From sequence record MH243438.1: 64,000 nucleotides of DNA; one strand, 5' to 3'. The notes beneath the pieces are model-generated. The model did no database searches and was not told where the DNA came from. It was given only the letters and a program-made list of their open reading frames with translations. This DNA comes from Escherichia phage vB_EcoM_NBG1. Each line of letters begins with the position of its first letter. Positions within the stretch are counted from its first letter, which is position 1. The position numbers were made by a program, and so were the translations under genes. Of this stretch, positions 6,182 through 11,011 are shown piece after piece.

Positions 6182-6594
6182 TATTGTTCCTTAAAATGTG
6201 CTTTCAACATTTGATACAAAGACCATGCCTGGTCGTTATTTTCGATAGTAATTGTCATCACCGGAAATTCAGACAATTCGTCAAGTTCACCAGAATCTTG
6301 CTCTTCGGACGCTTGATATGGATTTCCAACTTCGTCAAAGAACTCTGCTTCATTCGTGGAGAGCCAGATAAAGTTTTCATCAAGGATATCACCGCCTGTT
6401 GCGTATCCAACCATACCAGTAGATGTCACAATTTTAGTAGGACGACCAAGATGGTCAACATCTAATACTTTAAATGGTTCCATGCCAAGACGACGTGCAT
6501 AAATCCCATTATCAGTGTGGTCTTTAATAAACTCTTCTTGGGCACGTTTATCTTTAAATTGGTACCATGAGTTAACGCGGAATTTATTAGCCAT
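6181..6594 (-). CDS. hypothetical protein
   Basis: 137 aa from ATG at 6594 (MANKFRVNS..), which overlaps upstream stop as TAATG; ORF-track start at 6612 is a TTG. Confidence 0.55.
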
Positions 6595-6821
6595 TAGTAA
6601 GTTTCCTTCCAATAAGTTGTACCATTTTCAGTGATTTCACGGAAGATACCATAGATAGGCATTTCGTCGCCGAGTTTTTCGTAAACGTAAACCACTTCGG
6701 TGTAGCATAAAAATTCGGTCCAGTTTTTCTGTACAACAACTAAATCAGGATTAAACAGAACATCTTCAAACTCATCGATGTTTGAATCAGTAGTTACGTT
6801 TTTAATGATTTGACGTTTCAT
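6594..6821 (-). CDS. hypothetical protein
   Basis: 75 aa from ATG at 6821 (MKRQIIKNV..) preceded by AGGAGA SD; ORF-track 5' extension would run into the promoter. Confidence 0.5.
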
Positions 6822-6849
6822 AATATTCTCCTCTTGTTTTGATAGGTCT

Positions 6850-6878
6850 ATAGTATCATAGACCATAGTTGTTGTACA
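6850..6878 (-). promoter_or_regulatory. early promoter (TGTACA-N17-TACTAT) with GGTCTAT/ATAGACC inverted repeat
   Basis: -10 at 6850-6855 and -35 at 6873-6878 read on minus strand. Confidence 0.45.
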
Positions 6879-7403
6879 TCATTTTAGCAAAATAAAATCA
6901 ACTTGTTCTGCCAATGAACGTCTAAACATTAATTGACAACTTCCGAGGATGAAATCAGGTGCTTCATAGACCGCGATGTAGTATCCTTTAGCTTTCAAGA
7001 GTTCAACATCCACCTGGTCATCAAACCATGCATAAACCGCGTCAACACTTTCAAATCCAAAATAGAACTCTTGAGCCCAATCTTCGTTCAATTCAAATGT
7101 GTGCTCAATTCTATAGTATCTTAAGATATTTTGTTCAAGGAGTTTGTCTTCATTTACTGTAGGACGATTAGGGACATTATAGTTGTCACCGTGATGGTAG
7201 AAGTTACCTGAGATTATCCCATGTTTATCAAGGAACTCCCATGTTTCTTCAGAGTTATCGGTGCCCGACCAACCGTATGGCGAACGAGGTTCTTTATTCC
7301 AAGAGGTTTCCCAAATTCTGACGGCTTTACCGTCTTCGATAGCAATTCCTGGTAATGATTCACGTTGAGTACAAAAACTACGTTCTACGCGGTAAACTAA
7401 CAT
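6879..7403 (-). CDS. hypothetical protein
   Basis: 174-aa ORF; SD AGGAGA lies inside a 13-bp inverted repeat with the upstream promoter spacer. Confidence 0.6.
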   Translation of the reverse strand: MLVYRVERSFCTQRESLPGIAIEDGKAVRIWETSWNKEPRSPYGWSGTDNSEETWEFLDKHGIISGNFYHHGDNYNVPNRPTVNEDKLLEQNILRYYRIEHTFELNEDWAQEFYFGFESVDAVYAWFDDQVDVELLKAKGYYIAVYEAPDFILGSCQLMFRRSLAEQVDFILLK

Positions 7404-7407
7404 ATTA

Positions 7408-7458
7408 TTCTCCTCTGGTTGATACGGTTATAATATCAAAACCAGAGGAGAAGTAAAC
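7408..7458 (-). promoter_or_regulatory. early promoter (GTTTAC-N17-TATTAT) whose spacer is a perfect 13-bp inverted repeat of the downstream SD region
   Basis: arms 7408-7420 (contains SD AGGAGA) and 7440-7452 (promoter spacer); -10 at 7430-7435; -35 at 7453-7458. Confidence 0.55.
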
Positions 7459-7462
7459 AACT

Positions 7463-7882
7463 TTATGCAAAAGATGCTGGACAATATTTTTTGATTTGGA
7501 ACTCAGGAACTACCATGAACTGTCCAGCGAAAACGATGTTATAAAGCTTAACACCATCTTCTACCCATTGGTCCGAAATAAAACCAGCAACTTGATTCGT
7601 TGTCCATGGAGACCCGTCAGTTGCAGCAGCAATAGTAAATTCATGGTCTTTTACAACTAAAACAGACCTGCACAGTTTCCATTTGAACGCACGTTCTTCT
7701 GGCTCAATGAACTGGCTTTTAACGTAACCAATGTTACCATCGGCGTCACGAACTTTAACTTGGTTACGACCAAAAACCGGATCACTCACAGAAAGAACTT
7801 CAACCAACTTCCCAGCAACTTTAGAGCGAGAAGCATCCGATACGTGTACATAATCACCAATAGAGAGATTTGCAATATTCAT
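7463..7882 (-). CDS. MotB-like protein, paralog 1 (KOW-like N-terminus)
   Basis: 139 aa; N-terminal IGDYVHVSDASRSKVAGKLVEV and C-terminal GFISDQWVEDGVKLYNIVF shared with the next ORF; T4 motB map position. Confidence 0.55.
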   Translation of the reverse strand: MNIANLSIGDYVHVSDASRSKVAGKLVEVLSVSDPVFGRNQVKVRDADGNIGYVKSQFIEPEERAFKWKLCRSVLVVKDHEFTIAAATDGSPWTTNQVAGFISDQWVEDGVKLYNIVFAGQFMVVPEFQIKKYCPASFA

Positions 7883-7891
7883 AATAATTCC

Positions 7892-8389
7892 TTAAGCTTT
7901 ACGAGGAGACACATAGCGAGTGATTTCAGATTCTTCAACAACTCGGAAGTCACCTAAGAATACAATATTGTATAGCTTTTTACCATCTTCTACCCATTGG
8001 TCACTAATGAAGCCGCACATAGTATCAGTTTTGCTTGGATAACCGTATTCGTCGATGTAATCAAATTCTTTATCGGTTATAAATTCAACGCCTTTGCAAA
8101 GGGCCCATTTGAACTGTGTAGTAGGCTCAACGATATCGCTTGAAGCAAAGTGTGCAGGTGCAACTTCTTCGCTTGAAGCAAATTGAACTCGTATATGTTT
8201 TTCCAGGAATTTAGGACTCACGTAAGCATACTGGGCATCTTGTCCGCCAAAACTGGGCATGATTCGAACTTTAACTTCTTTAACACGTCCCATGCCGTTA
8301 GTACGAAGCCCTGCTACTTCAACCAGACGACCTGCAGCTTTAGAACGAGAAGCAGGAGATACACGAAGGATTTCACCAATAGTAATCAT
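7892..8389 (-). CDS. MotB-like protein, paralog 2
   Basis: 165 aa; shares SRSKAAGRLVEV and GFISDQWVEDGKKLYNIVF with paralog 1. Confidence 0.55.
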   Translation of the reverse strand: MITIGEILRVSPASRSKAAGRLVEVAGLRTNGMGRVKEVKVRIMPSFGGQDAQYAYVSPKFLEKHIRVQFASSEEVAPAHFASSDIVEPTTQFKWALCKGVEFITDKEFDYIDEYGYPSKTDTMCGFISDQWVEDGKKLYNIVFLGDFRVVEESEITRYVSPRKA

Positions 8390-8417
8390 AATTTCTCTCT
8401 TTGTTTAAATTGAATTC

Positions 8418-8446
8418 ACTATACTCCATCCATCCTTGGATGTACA
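8418..8446 (-). promoter_or_regulatory. early sigma70-like promoter, PeSL-type variant (TTGTACA-N17-TATAGT)
   Basis: minus strand TTGTACATCCAAGGATGGATGGAGTATAGT, about 25 nt upstream of the ATG at 8389. Confidence 0.55.
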
Positions 8447-8449
8447 ACA

Positions 8450-8944
8450 TTAATTAAGGATATTAACCACAGCACTACGCGGAACTACACTAAAATCACC
8501 TGCATGAACTACGTTCAGAAGTTCAACACCGTCTTCAATCCACTGATCAGTTACCCATCCACAAACTGGACCTGCGAACGGACGTCGAATTGAAACAGCT
8601 TTACACAACAAATCAGTAGGCTCAATAGGCTTAATCAGAGTACCGTACATACAAGCGATATCCATATCAATACAGATGTCTTTAACGGGTTCTACTTCTT
8701 CAATCAACAGTTCAAAGTCTGTGCTTGGAAGGGCGGTAGTAGAAATTGTACCATATGAATTTTTAATTTCTAAGAATAACCAAGGGCCTTCAGCTTGTTT
8801 GATGAAGTTAACAATAGTGAAACTGTTACCTTGAGTGGCACCTAAAATTTCACAAAACTTTTCATAAGCTCGCACTGAAGCACCGTACCAGTTGATTTGT
8901 TTTTCGTCTTTCAGGATGTAAGTAGCCGTAGTATTGATATTCAT
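8450..8944 (-). CDS. MotB C-terminal-domain-like protein, paralog 3
   Basis: 164 aa; C-terminus GWVTDQWIEDGVELLNVVHAGDF matches paralogs 1 and 2; N-terminus unrelated; own PeSL-type promoter. Confidence 0.55.
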   Translation of the reverse strand: MNINTTATYILKDEKQINWYGASVRAYEKFCEILGATQGNSFTIVNFIKQAEGPWLFLEIKNSYGTISTTALPSTDFELLIEEVEPVKDICIDMDIACMYGTLIKPIEPTDLLCKAVSIRRPFAGPVCGWVTDQWIEDGVELLNVVHAGDFSVVPRSAVVNILN

Positions 8945-8975: not shown

Positions 8976-9005
8976 ATTATACTCCAACCATCCTTGGTTG
9001 TAAAC
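8976..9005 (-). promoter_or_regulatory. early promoter cassette (GTTTAC-N17/18-TATAAT with internal inverted repeat)
   Basis: minus strand AGTTTACAACCAAGGATGGTTGGAGTATAAT; identical 30-nt copies at 50967-50996 and 51987-52015. Confidence 0.6.
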
Positions 9006-9010
9006 TGATT

Positions 9011-9688
9011 TTATCGCTGTTTTACACTTAACGGGTCAGGATTCTCAGGGACATCTTCAAGGTCAAGCGCATAACGCTGAGCATATTTTAACATCAAAAT
9101 ATCTTTAGCGCAATCATGAATACTATCATGGGCAACAAATCCTTTTAGCGTACCCATCGGTAATGGACACGTACTTAATCCTCGTGTCAACGAGTAAGCT
9201 TCGATTGCCGTACGAATATCGCGTTGAGCCCAGAATTTAACCGGTTCTAATTTATCAGTATCAATATCTGGTTCAAGAACACCTTCATCACGATAGAGGT
9301 CACGAATCAAATCGACCAATATCGGGAAGTCAAAGCTCATACCACGGCACCACATCTGTGATTTCCATTGGTCAACTTTATTAGCTCGGCAATAGTCTAA
9401 AAAGATTTTAATGCCTTCAAGCGTAGTGACATCGTCTTCAGACGGAGCCAAGTTTTTACGTGCTTCAGCCGATTGTTCTTTCCACCATTTCATAGTGGAT
9501 TTAGCGAAAACTCGCTTCCCTTTCTGAGAAGCTAAATTAAATTTAATTCGCTTACCTCGTTGAACAAGTTCTTCAAATGATTCAACAACTTCAGGGTCGG
9601 AATTATATGCAATAACCGCAAGGTCAATAACAGCCGCTTTTGATGTATTGCCGAATGTTTCAAAATCTATAATAACATCAGTGCTCAT
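9011..9688 (-). CDS. dexA: exonuclease A (DnaQ-like 3'-5' exonuclease)
   Basis: 225 aa; Exo I motif IIDFETFG; T4 dexA length and position. Confidence 0.85.
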   Translation of the reverse strand: MSTDVIIDFETFGNTSKAAVIDLAVIAYNSDPEVVESFEELVQRGKRIKFNLASQKGKRVFAKSTMKWWKEQSAEARKNLAPSEDDVTTLEGIKIFLDYCRANKVDQWKSQMWCRGMSFDFPILVDLIRDLYRDEGVLEPDIDTDKLEPVKFWAQRDIRTAIEAYSLTRGLSTCPLPMGTLKGFVAHDSIHDCAKDILMLKYAQRYALDLEDVPENPDPLSVKQR

Positions 9689-9697
9689 AATTTTCTC

Positions 9698-11011
9698 TCA
9701 AATAAAATGGACGTCAAAACGACCACGAGTTGTGCCGACATACAATAACTGTTTAGCTAATTCTGAATCGGCATAATGGATACACGGTGTATAAACAAAG
9801 GCCGTGTCAACAGACATACCCTGGGCCTTATGGAAGGTTGATACTGGTAGTGCCTTCACCTTAGTGAACATACGTTTAGCATCCCAGAATTCGCTCCATG
9901 GAGCTTTACCACCTTTATTCCAGAATTTGTATGTTTCTGCGGTCTTAGCCAAAAACAAATTGAATTTATAAAGCTCTTCTTCAGAAGAAATAACCTTTAT
10001 ATCTTCGCGGATGTATTCTTCATCATCCCCATATGTTTCTACTGTAAGATTCCAGTATCGTATCATATATTCGCCTGAAACACCACGTGCTTTAACGAAT
10101 GTAGACGTTTCTACAGCATCTCGAATACGAACGAATTGCCCGTTATTGAAAAGCATTTCGGTCATATTTTTTCCATCTAGCTTGTACGTCTTAGTAAACG
10201 GCTCTTGTAGAACAATGACTTCGTCTTTAATAAATGGTTTTTCTGTTTCAAGAAGTTTTCGGCGAATAATTGAATTCAACTTGTCCACCGACTTATTTGT
10301 GAATGCCATCATTCGATTTTCGAAAAGGTCTTCAGGAGTTTTAACGACGTTAAAATAGTTCATCATATACGATTTAAGGTCTGTATATCCGTGAACACCG
10401 TGTCCATCAACTACTTTATCGTAAATCCATTTGCCATTACGAATATCAGTCGCAACATCAATAATTGGTGCATTGCTACGTTTAACTTCTGTAAGGTTGC
10501 ATTGCACGAAGTCTTTGTGAGTGAAGAAAGGACTTAGATACGCAGTTGATTCGCCTGGGTCTACCGGACGAATCTGGCATCGGTCGCCGATTCCAATTAC
10601 TGTGCACCATTTAGGGATACTAGCTAACATTATTTTAAACAGAGAACGGTCGCACATTGACGCTTCATCAAATAACAGTACACGACACAATGCTAAGTCG
10701 GGGACCTTTTTCTGTTCAAATAATACGTTTTCTTCGTATGTAGTTGGGTTGATTTTAAGAATGCTATGAATAGTCGATGCTTCTTGACCCGCAAGTTTGC
10801 TTAGAACCTTTTTAGCAGCATGTGTAGGGGCTGCTAAAATAATACCTGATTCTCCGGCAGAAATAAGAGCTTCAACGATGAATCTAGTAAGGGTTGTTTT
10901 ACCTGTACCAGCAGGCCCGTTAATAGTTACGTGATGTTTCTTTTCTTTAATAGCGTTCATAACAACGTTGAAGGCGTTTTTCTGGCCTTCAGTCAAATCA
11001 TCAAATTTCAT
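9698..11011 (-). CDS. dda: Dda DNA helicase (SF1)
   Basis: 437 aa; Walker A INGPAGTGKTT; T4 Dda length and position. Confidence 0.9.
   Translation of the reverse strand: MKFDDLTEGQKNAFNVVMNAIKEKKHHVTINGPAGTGKTTLTRFIVEALISAGESGIILAAPTHAAKKVLSKLAGQEASTIHSILKINPTTYEENVLFEQKKVPDLALCRVLLFDEASMCDRSLFKIMLASIPKWCTVIGIGDRCQIRPVDPGESTAYLSPFFTHKDFVQCNLTEVKRSNAPIIDVATDIRNGKWIYDKVVDGHGVHGYTDLKSYMMNYFNVVKTPEDLFENRMMAFTNKSVDKLNSIIRRKLLETEKPFIKDEVIVLQEPFTKTYKLDGKNMTEMLFNNGQFVRIRDAVETSTFVKARGVSGEYMIRYWNLTVETYGDDEEYIREDIKVISSEEELYKFNLFLAKTAETYKFWNKGGKAPWSEFWDAKRMFTKVKALPVSTFHKAQGMSVDTAFVYTPCIHYADSELAKQLLYVGTTRGRFDVHFI

Follow-up and report, generated by a model that had tools for sequence, protein, structure and literature searches.

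A MotB-like gene trio between dexA and cef of a Mosigvirus: a probable conserved early cassette motB.1-motB-motB'

Introduction

Phage T4 makes MotB in abundance early in infection; the protein binds DNA, whether modified or not, without sequence specificity (PMC6070864, PMC7827196), and the binding is tight (PMC6070864). The protein co-purifies with H-NS and StpA, is toxic when overexpressed, shifts the H-NS footprint, de-represses part of the H-NS regulon on overproduction and doubles the burst size (PMC6070864, PMC7827196). Its gene is an abundantly expressed early gene with a mapped promoter (PMC7827196); a T4 motB promoter and RegB cleavage at a GGAG of motB mRNA were shown experimentally (PMC1702504). 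Both motB and motB.1 of T4 are dispensable in the laboratory, and deletion of motB.1 gave no phenotype (PMC12152347).

Between MotB and MotB.1 the C-terminal domain is conserved, whereas the N-terminal domains are different (Patterson-West et al. 2021, Viruses 13:84, PMC7827196). In that study MotB residues 69-149 were matched by HHpred to the cold-shock/eIF5A OB family, the C-terminal domain was called an OB-fold and a possible DNA-binding domain, and MotB.1 proteins of the phrog_2333 type were designated 'Category 2' (PMC7827196). Two MotB proteins and one MotB.1 were tabulated for the Mosigviruses APCEc01, JS09, PhAPEC2, Shf125875, SHSML-52-1 and O157 typing phage 3, and also for the Tequatroviruses RB51 and Sf24; for Mosigvirus RB69 the numbers were two and two (PMC7827196 Table S6).

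Results

Locus and gene order

The window (the whole stretch of 64,000 nucleotides that was analysed) is 95-98% identical in this region to Mosigvirus genomes, such as vB_EcoM_G53, ST0, HX01 and APCEc01, which identifies its source as a Mosigvirus (RB69-like T-even phage). Three consecutive minus-strand ORFs, here named g3, g2 and g1, together span exactly 7463-8944. The neighbourhood order is dda, dexA, g3, g2, g1, a MotB.2-like ORF and cef:

9698-11011: dda, first gene of the neighbourhood order
9011-9688, minus strand: dexA, the gene preceding g3
8450-8944, minus strand: g3, 164 aa, MotB.1-type
7892-8389, minus strand: g2, 165 aa, full-length MotB
7463-7882, minus strand: g1, 139 aa, second MotB copy (MotB'), ortholog of RB69 ORF010c
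6879-7403, minus strand: MotB.2-like ORF, 174 aa, after g1
6594-6866, minus strand: cef, end of the neighbourhood order

The dexA-cef interval is thus made up of four minus-strand ORFs. This is the early dexA-cef position of a Tevenvirinae genome by which MotB-family genes are recognised, and the neighbourhood is the same in T4, RB69 and RB68. The 174-aa ORF was considered as a fourth paralog, since it is labelled 'MotB' in the GenBank record of phage pEB20, and rejected: it has no PF17613 match, the module described below is absent, and it is a homolog of T4 MotB.2.

Shared C-terminal module

All three proteins matched the Pfam family PF17613 (motB) above its gathering score of 25 bits: g1 with 85.4 bits, g2 with 125.7 bits over residues 1-160, and g3 with 40.5 bits over residues 84-159, which match only the C-terminal half of the profile (positions 78-153). 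In PHROG, g1 and g2 were assigned to phrog_1671 and g3 to phrog_2333. What the three share is a C-terminal module of ~57-80 aa (pairwise E about 1e-11), located by alignment as follows:

8453-8623, minus strand: module of g3, residues 108-164 (EPTDLLCKAV...GWVTDQWIEDGVELLNVVHAGDFSVVPRSAVVNILN)
7895-8128, minus strand: module of g2, residues ~88-165, with a first beta-hairpin longer than that of g3
7466-7696, minus strand: module of g1

The module contains ...GFISDQWVEDGVKLYNIVFAGQFMVVPE in g1, ...GFISDQWVEDGKKLYNIVFLGDFRVVEE in g2 and ...GWVTDQWIEDGVELLNVVHAGDFSVVPR in g3. Its core across the trio is G-[FW]-[IV]-[ST]-DQW-[VI]-EDG-x-x-L-[YL]-N-[IV]-V, and the positions that do not change in the alignments are G, D-Q-W, E, G, L, N, V, G and V. 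The pattern by which the module had been recognised in the original prediction, DQW(V/I)EDG..L(Y/L)N(I/V)VF..DF..VV, picks out a real module and is slightly too strict in its details: g3 has VVH, not VVF, and g1 has QF, not DF.

BLASTP aligned g1 with g2 over the whole length (E = 1e-31, 40% identity) and g3 with g2 over 38 aa (E = 1e-11). When each protein was compared with all 64 kb by tblastn, the module was found at three loci only (E about 6e-9; next matches E > 1). A chance similarity of the three proteins, which had been named as one outcome that would undo the proposed relationship, was rejected on these E-values; together with the PF17613 scores they bear out the claim of three consecutive genes with a common C-terminal module.

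A profile of the module was searched against 1.84 billion representative proteins and gave 32 matches at E <= 1e-3, nearly all of them small T-even-type proteins, to judge from which the module is essentially restricted to T-even-type phages. In the relatives it is joined to varied N-termini, namely a KOW-like domain or else a single or double LSm-like domain. Five long proteins (532-934 aa) meet only a short part of the profile, in several stretches; in three of these five, P0194, P0199 and P0201, the matches coincide with repeated motifs, GYATEQWVEDKGYL or GYQWQKNGV, and were rejected as motif-level coincidence. Searches of PDB sequences with the g2 sequence and with the C-terminal-module profile returned nothing meaningful (best E = 0.87 and 0.89, unrelated proteins).

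N-terminal domains and family assignment

The N-terminal motif SRSK[VA]AG[KR]LVEV is present, as predicted, in two of the genes, g1 (SRSKVAGKLVEV) and g2 (SRSKAAGRLVEV), and the SRSKxAGxLVEV N-terminus is absent from g3. The SRSKxAGxLVEV motif is invariant across 24 homologs. The Pfam KOW family (PF00467) gave no match to g1 or g2 at E <= 1; P0197, a distant family member found via the module profile, matched PF00467 with 24.8 bits (cut-off 22.3) at the equivalent N-terminal position, and on the strength of this match 'KOW-like' is a reasonable description of the g1 and g2 N-terminus.

In g2 a basic KOW-like domain forms the N-terminus (residues 1-63), residues 65-90 are a disordered linker whose length varies, and the module follows. 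With 45% identity to T4 MotB (E = 7e-42), the protein is the MotB ortholog. Its linker contains one further feature:

8136-8182, minus strand: two 14-bp direct repeats TTTGCTTCAAGCGA, 33 bp apart, encoding FASSEEV and FASSDIV

In the alignment, the 154-aa orthologs of g2 lack exactly 11 aa at this repeat site. The g1 protein has the two domains of g2 with a very short linker and an N-terminal domain that is not basic; its identity is 40% to T4 MotB (E = 1e-29) and 91% to RB69 ORF010c (dN/dS 0.19).

In g3 an LSm-like N-terminal domain (~residues 1-85) is followed by a disordered linker with a DMDIACMYGTLIKP motif and by the module. The protein matched the MotB.1 profile phrog_2333 at full length (E = 1.3e-83, residues 1-164) and T4 MotB.1 by BLASTP (E = 5e-28, 38% identity along the whole T4 protein). 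A full-length phrog_2333 match, an LSm-like N-terminus and a MotB-type C-terminal module are thus combined in g3, as in the MotB.1 family, and it is filed under MotB.1 rather than MotB proper because the SRSKxAGxLVEV N-terminal domain is missing. On this evidence g3 is the ortholog of T4 motB.1 and, since it has the different, LSm-like N-terminal domain of that family, not the product of a lineage-specific motB duplication. The description of the genes as three MotB-like paralogs accordingly stands for the C-terminal homology and for g1 and g2, which are full-length MotB proteins; g3 belongs with MotB.1.

In the legacy T4 reference, MotB.1 is cut short by one extra G. The motB.1 gene of resequenced T4 has the full C-terminal module, and work on 'T4 MotB.1' based on NC_000866.4 used a protein missing most of the shared module.

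Promoter-like sites and gene junction

Two promoter-like sites and one short junction were located:

8976-9004, minus strand: promoter-like site upstream of g3, sigma-70/T4-early-type TTTACA-17-TATAAT, 11/12 consensus positions
8418-8446, minus strand: weaker promoter-like site upstream of g2, TGTACA-17-TATAGT, 9/12, with palindrome CATCCAAGGATGGATG in the spacer
7883-7891, minus strand: g2-g1 junction of 9 nt, TAA, GGAATTATT, ATG, read from the sequence

The site of g3 is conserved in pEB20 and RB69, and its spacer holds the palindrome CAACCAAGGATGGTTG; a pair of compensatory changes distinguishes the two palindromes, each of 16 bp. The regions upstream of g2 and of g3 share 76% identity along 66 bp. 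TGGAGTATA, the putative -10 of g2, is homologous to the GGAG-containing element (RegB site) in the 5' leader of T4 motB, and for this reason the g2 promoter call is the less secure of the two. A promoter scan of this AT-rich region gave 15 sites against 16.3 expected from shuffled sequence and carries no statistical weight. Both promoters are putative: they are consensus matches, judged by position and by homology to the mapped T4 motB promoter. That two of the genes have promoters of their own, as had been claimed, holds at this level; the term 'PeSL-type' applied to them could not be matched to a standard one.

For g1 the scan with the sigma-70/T4-early consensus gave no promoter-like site of its own. 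The Shine-Dalgarno sequence of g1 (AAGGA) overlaps the g2 stop codon, the g1 start lies 9 nt past the stop, and the junction is identical in RB68. From this junction it follows that g1 is co-transcribed and probably translationally coupled with g2.

Predicted structures

AF2 models calculated from family alignments (g2, pLDDT 77; g3, pLDDT 79) show two beta domains and a disordered linker in each protein. The N-terminal domain of the g3 model is a helix with five strands. A Foldseek search with g3 found T4 P39415 (MotB.1, E = 1.7e-9) and GoF of phage VR7 (E = 0.016); this match of the predicted N-terminal domain is in line with the family of LSm-like folds reported by Kim et al. 2025 (PMC12152347).

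In both models the module runs through four strands and a 3-10 turn into a fifth strand; in g2 the DSSP strands are 100-112, 118-134, 137-144 and 147-152, followed by the 3-10 turn and 156-159. An OB-fold has a helix between strands 3 and 4. The module models do not show the combination of a five-stranded barrel, a helix at that place and OB-fold neighbours, and no OB-fold protein was found among the top 60 structural matches with the whole two-domain predicted models as query. Small SH3-like beta-barrels of the KOW/Tudor/chromo type are known from the NusG C-terminal domain, Spt5 KOW and the tandem Tudor of 53BP1. From the predicted models and the whole-chain search we infer that the shared module is an SH3/Tudor-like barrel, contrary to the OB-fold assignment of 2021.

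Charge distribution

The calculated charges are distributed as follows:

T4 MotB: N-terminal domain +4.6, C-terminal module +0.8, whole protein +5.8 (pI 9.2)
g2: N-terminal domain +4.5, C-terminal module -4.6, whole protein -1.3
g1: N-terminal domain -1.4, C-terminal module -0.1, whole protein -1.3
g3: N-terminal domain -5.5, C-terminal module -3.1, whole protein -9.4 (pI 4.5)

Within the trio a basic N-terminal domain is found in g2 (165 aa) only. As g1 and g2 are slightly acidic overall, unlike T4 MotB, an equal affinity for DNA is not to be assumed. The 'DNA-binding' of the original prediction is known for T4 MotB only, and the charges give no support for carrying it over to the strongly acidic g3 or to g1, whose N-terminal domain is not basic.

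Discussion

Function of the trio and of the shared module

The best explanation, to which we give a probability of about 0.8, is that the trio is a conserved early cassette motB.1-motB-motB' of Mosigvirus that encodes small two-domain all-beta proteins with one shared C-terminal small-barrel module. By analogy with T4, the proteins are likely to be abundant early in infection, to bind the nucleoid and to alter the complexes of H-NS with DNA, and the role of T4 MotB itself would, by homology, fall to g2. If they behave as T4 MotB does, they would be made in quantity within minutes of infection (PMC6070864, PMC7827196); the MotB-type protein would bind host and phage DNA nonspecifically, probably through its basic KOW-like domain, and the binding would reshape H-NS/StpA-DNA complexes and so raise the phage yield modestly. 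The paralogs may couple a single common function to N-terminal heads that bind nucleic acid and differ from one paralog to the next. Because of the charges of the individual domains, the basic KOW-like domain rather than the shared module is suggested to be the better candidate for DNA binding. The module, with its invariant acidic-aromatic loop G-[FWY]-[IV]-[ST]-D-Q-W-[IV]-E-x-G, would more plausibly serve docking or assembly than present a DNA-binding surface.

An extension of this reading is offered tentatively, as one possibility that we consider rather doubtful: the module, rather than a DNA-binding OB-fold, might be a docking domain of the Tudor/SH3-like type, exclusive to T-even phages, that brings interchangeable heads to one partner or assembly. 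The heads would then be basic KOW-like, neutral KOW-like, or one or two LSm-like domains, and the partner could be H-NS/StpA-coated DNA. The paralogs would act jointly, for example in a mixed complex in which the neutral g1 modulates the DNA-binding g2, and a linker peptide that recurs, D-x-D-[IV]-A-x-x-Y-x-x-x-[IV]-K-P, might be a second short binding motif.

It is improbable that the module is an OB-fold binding DNA directly and that all three proteins are DNA binders through it. The HHpred match of MotB to the cold-shock/eIF5A OB family (PMC7827196) and the tight DNA binding of T4 MotB (PMC6070864) would fit this explanation; the SH3/Tudor strand order in both AF2 models, the acidity of the module in g2 and g3 and the low pI of the whole g3 protein argue against it.

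The second MotB copy

MotB was found by tblastn in 773 phage records, about 207 of which have a g1-type copy (at least 80% identity). These copies have an intact frame, full coverage and 84-99% identity, and each of the 16 rows sampled among them had a second MotB locus. The other 566 records have no g1-type copy (best g1 match below 60% identity), and the rows sampled from these each showed a single MotB place. With orthologs from pEB20, RB69 and RB68, dN/dS was 0.10-0.28 for each of g1, g2 and g3 (dS up to 0.7), values by which all three genes are under purifying selection. For g1 against RB68 and RB69, dN/dS was 0.10-0.19 at dS 0.3-0.66.

We regard it as quite unlikely that g1 is a decaying, functionally redundant duplicate heading for loss. 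Several of its features could be read in this way: it is shorter, lacks most of the linker, has lost the positive charge of the N-terminal domain and has no promoter of its own; T4 and most Tequatroviruses manage without it; and in a hybrid protein, P0036, an N-terminus of g2 type is joined to a C-terminus of g1 type, so that the pair can evidently collapse by recombination. This is countered by the intact copies in the 207 records, by the low dN/dS of g1, and by the junction and Shine-Dalgarno sequence conserved between Mosigvirus and RB68. Since its charge is neutral and a second MotB is always present, g1 is taken to be sub-functionalised rather than redundant. The MotB doublet is in this sense a stable, selected configuration in about a quarter of MotB-bearing phages.

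Origin of the array

T4 has the order dexA, motB.2, motB.1, motB, cef. The earlier statement of a lone motB at this place in T4 is incorrect, as motB.1 carries the same module; by this comparison two T4 genes here bear the module, and g1 is the only one that T4 lacks. The synonymous sites of g1 and g2 are saturated (dS 1.4, similar to g2 against T4 MotB), for which reason the duplication is considered old. A recent lineage-specific tandem triplication of motB, from one copy in T4 to three here, would account for three adjacent genes on one strand with a module in common and for the similar upstream regions of g2 and g3, and is refuted by the comparisons with T4, RB69 and RB68, being extremely unlikely in view of the T4 motB.1 that adjoins motB and in resequenced T4 has the full module, the other PHROG and different N-terminal fold of g3, the saturated g1/g2 divergence, and the occurrence of the trio in RB68, of another genus, and of the second copy in 207 records. 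Duplication and divergence, as had been proposed, are thus both reflected in the array, with the restriction that g3 is not a lineage-specific copy.

Comparison with known systems

The trio is real but ordinary, and the arrangement is not new: it is already annotated in RB69, where the order is dexA, motB.1, motB, ORF010c ('similar to motB'), motB.2, cef, and the arrangement was published in 2021 (PMC7827196 Table S6). As it stands, the array is of little import, and it has modest value for work on host takeover by T4. Order and content are identical in RB69 and the Mosigviruses APCEc01, JS09, PhAPEC2, Shf125875, ST0 and HX01, with proteins that are 86-99% identical. The RB69 reference differs in that frameshifts split its motB.1 into ORFs of 132 aa and 29 aa; the gene is intact here (164 aa). 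The g2 linker of the window has the 11-aa repeat that is missing from some relatives. In RB68, a Tequatrovirus, the order is motB.2, motB.1, motB, motB', and only the position of motB.2 differs; the block motB.1-motB-motB' is therefore a cassette that crosses genus borders.

Compared with T4 MotB.1, g3 has the same N-terminal fold, C-terminal module and place immediately upstream of motB, and differs in an additional linker insert of 20 aa, which holds the DMDIACMYGTLIKP motif. In Mosigvirus, motB.1 directly follows dexA and has a promoter-like site to itself, whereas in T4 and RB68 it comes after motB.2 and has no such site. The g1 and g2 proteins resemble T4 MotB, with which comparison had been recommended, in the two-domain layout, the SRSKxAG N-terminal motif, the C-terminal module and the location in the dexA-cef early region, and the upstream leader with its GGAG element is homologous between the MotB genes of the window and T4 motB. 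They differ from it in sequence (40-45% identity only), in copy number (two against one), in net charge (-1.3 against +5.8) and in the linker, which is shorter in g1 and of different length and sequence in g2.

Reference sequences of motB.1

The T4 motB.1 gene in the legacy reference (AF158101.6 / NC_000866.4) was found to contain one surplus G (TGGATTGGAAGATGG versus TGGATTGAAGATGG), by which MotB.1 is cut to 119 aa with the end ...TDQWIGRWR*. The two T4 forms and the RB69 reference gene are as follows.

NC_000866.4, 2292-2651: T4 motB.1, legacy form, together with a 150-bp gap downstream
MT984581.1, 70-501: T4 motB.1, full form
NC_004928.1, 2877-3373: RB69 motB.1, split by frameshifts

Among the near-identical matches listed (at least 99.3 % identity; 13 T4-named records, RB55 and RB59), all 15 aligned spans were one base shorter than the NC_000866.4 query; the position of the missing base was pinned down in a single record, MT984581. 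Translation of motB.1 from MT984581 gave 143 aa with the C-terminal module shared by the MotB family complete, and a MotB.1 protein of 143 aa (P0068) was present on 256 contigs. In the study of Kim et al. 2025 (PMC12152347) genes were synthesised, some constructs were derived from NC_000866.4 coordinates, and a mass of 13.8 kDa was given for MotB.1; on these three points, the form tested there probably lacked most of the shared module.

In the RB69 reference, frameshifts leave the gene as two separate ORFs, of 132 aa and 29 aa; the shorter one is the "Category 3" peptide of PMC7827196. Every piece of the module could be read across three frames of this region, and motB.1 is unbroken (164 aa) in the window and in the related phage pEB20. 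From these sequences it follows that the 29-aa peptide is a piece of motB.1, split off by a sequencing error or a mutation of the strain, rather than a gene of its own.

Linker variation and possible paralog recombination

Repeats and a conserved peptide were located in the linkers of the MotB ortholog (g2) and the MotB.1-type protein (g3).

8136-8182: two 14-bp direct repeats, 33 bp apart, g2 linker
8629-8670: conserved short peptide, disordered g3 linker (residues about 92-105; MotB.1-type alignment A4)

The g2 repeats code for FASSEEV and FASSDIV, and the 154-aa g2 orthologs lack exactly the 11 residues at this place; lengths of 151 to 172 aa occur among other relatives. Length variation is thus concentrated in the MotB linker as a hotspot, and slippage or recombination between short repeats is the probable cause. 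A hybrid MotB was also found: P0036 (173 aa, from a metagenomic contig of 3.8 kb) combines an N-terminal domain and linker of g2 type with a C-terminal module of the type of the second MotB copy, g1. Its composition matches the product to be expected if unequal recombination between the tandem paralogs had reduced the doublet to a single gene.

The g3 peptide follows the pattern D-[MF]-D-[IV]-[AV]-[CS]-x-Y-x-x-x-[IV]-[KE]-P. In alignment A4 it also occurs, at other positions, in further MotB.1-type proteins: at the N-terminus of the 180-aa forms and between the two LSm-like domains of the 250-aa forms. It is absent from T4 MotB.1. The peptide has the appearance of a portable short linear motif.

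Palindromes in promoter-like sites

The spacers of two promoter-like sites each contain a perfect 16-bp palindrome.

8976-9004, minus strand: g3 promoter-like site, palindrome CAACCAAGGATGGTTG
8418-8446, minus strand: g2 promoter-like site, palindrome CATCCAAGGATGGATG

A compensating A/T swap distinguishes the two palindromes and points to a conserved hairpin or to a site bound by a dimer. Both pEB20 and RB69 carry the g3 palindrome in identical form; that of g2 has one mismatch in RB69 (GGACGG).

The cef start and the MotB.2-like gene

6594-6866: cef, longest ORF (90 aa)
6879-7403: MotB.2-like gene
7408-7452, minus strand: inverted repeat upstream of the MotB.2-like gene

The Pfam T4_Cef match begins 15 codons downstream of the longest ORF start, and an internal ATG at 6821 is preceded by a promoter-like site and the Shine-Dalgarno sequence GAGGAG; because of these two signals, 6821 is probably the true cef start.

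The repeat at 7408-7452 is a perfect 13-bp inverted repeat (TTCTCCTCTGGTT / AACCAGAGGAGAA) with a folding energy of -24.2 kcal/mol (z = -5.8). Its 3' arm includes the Shine-Dalgarno sequence GAGGAG, and its loop holds the -10 element of a promoter-like site (7457..7430). The hairpin would mask the ribosome-binding site in read-through transcripts from upstream, and transcripts begun at the local site would leave it exposed. In T4 and RB68 motB.2 a hairpin stands at the equivalent place with a sequence unlike that of the window (CCTCGGTTAG.../...CTACTGAGG), so the structure co-varies. The MotB.2-like gene, its promoter and its hairpin lie downstream of motB' (g1) in the window but upstream of motB.1 in T4 and RB68; on this comparison of gene order, the three are relocated as one relative to both phages.
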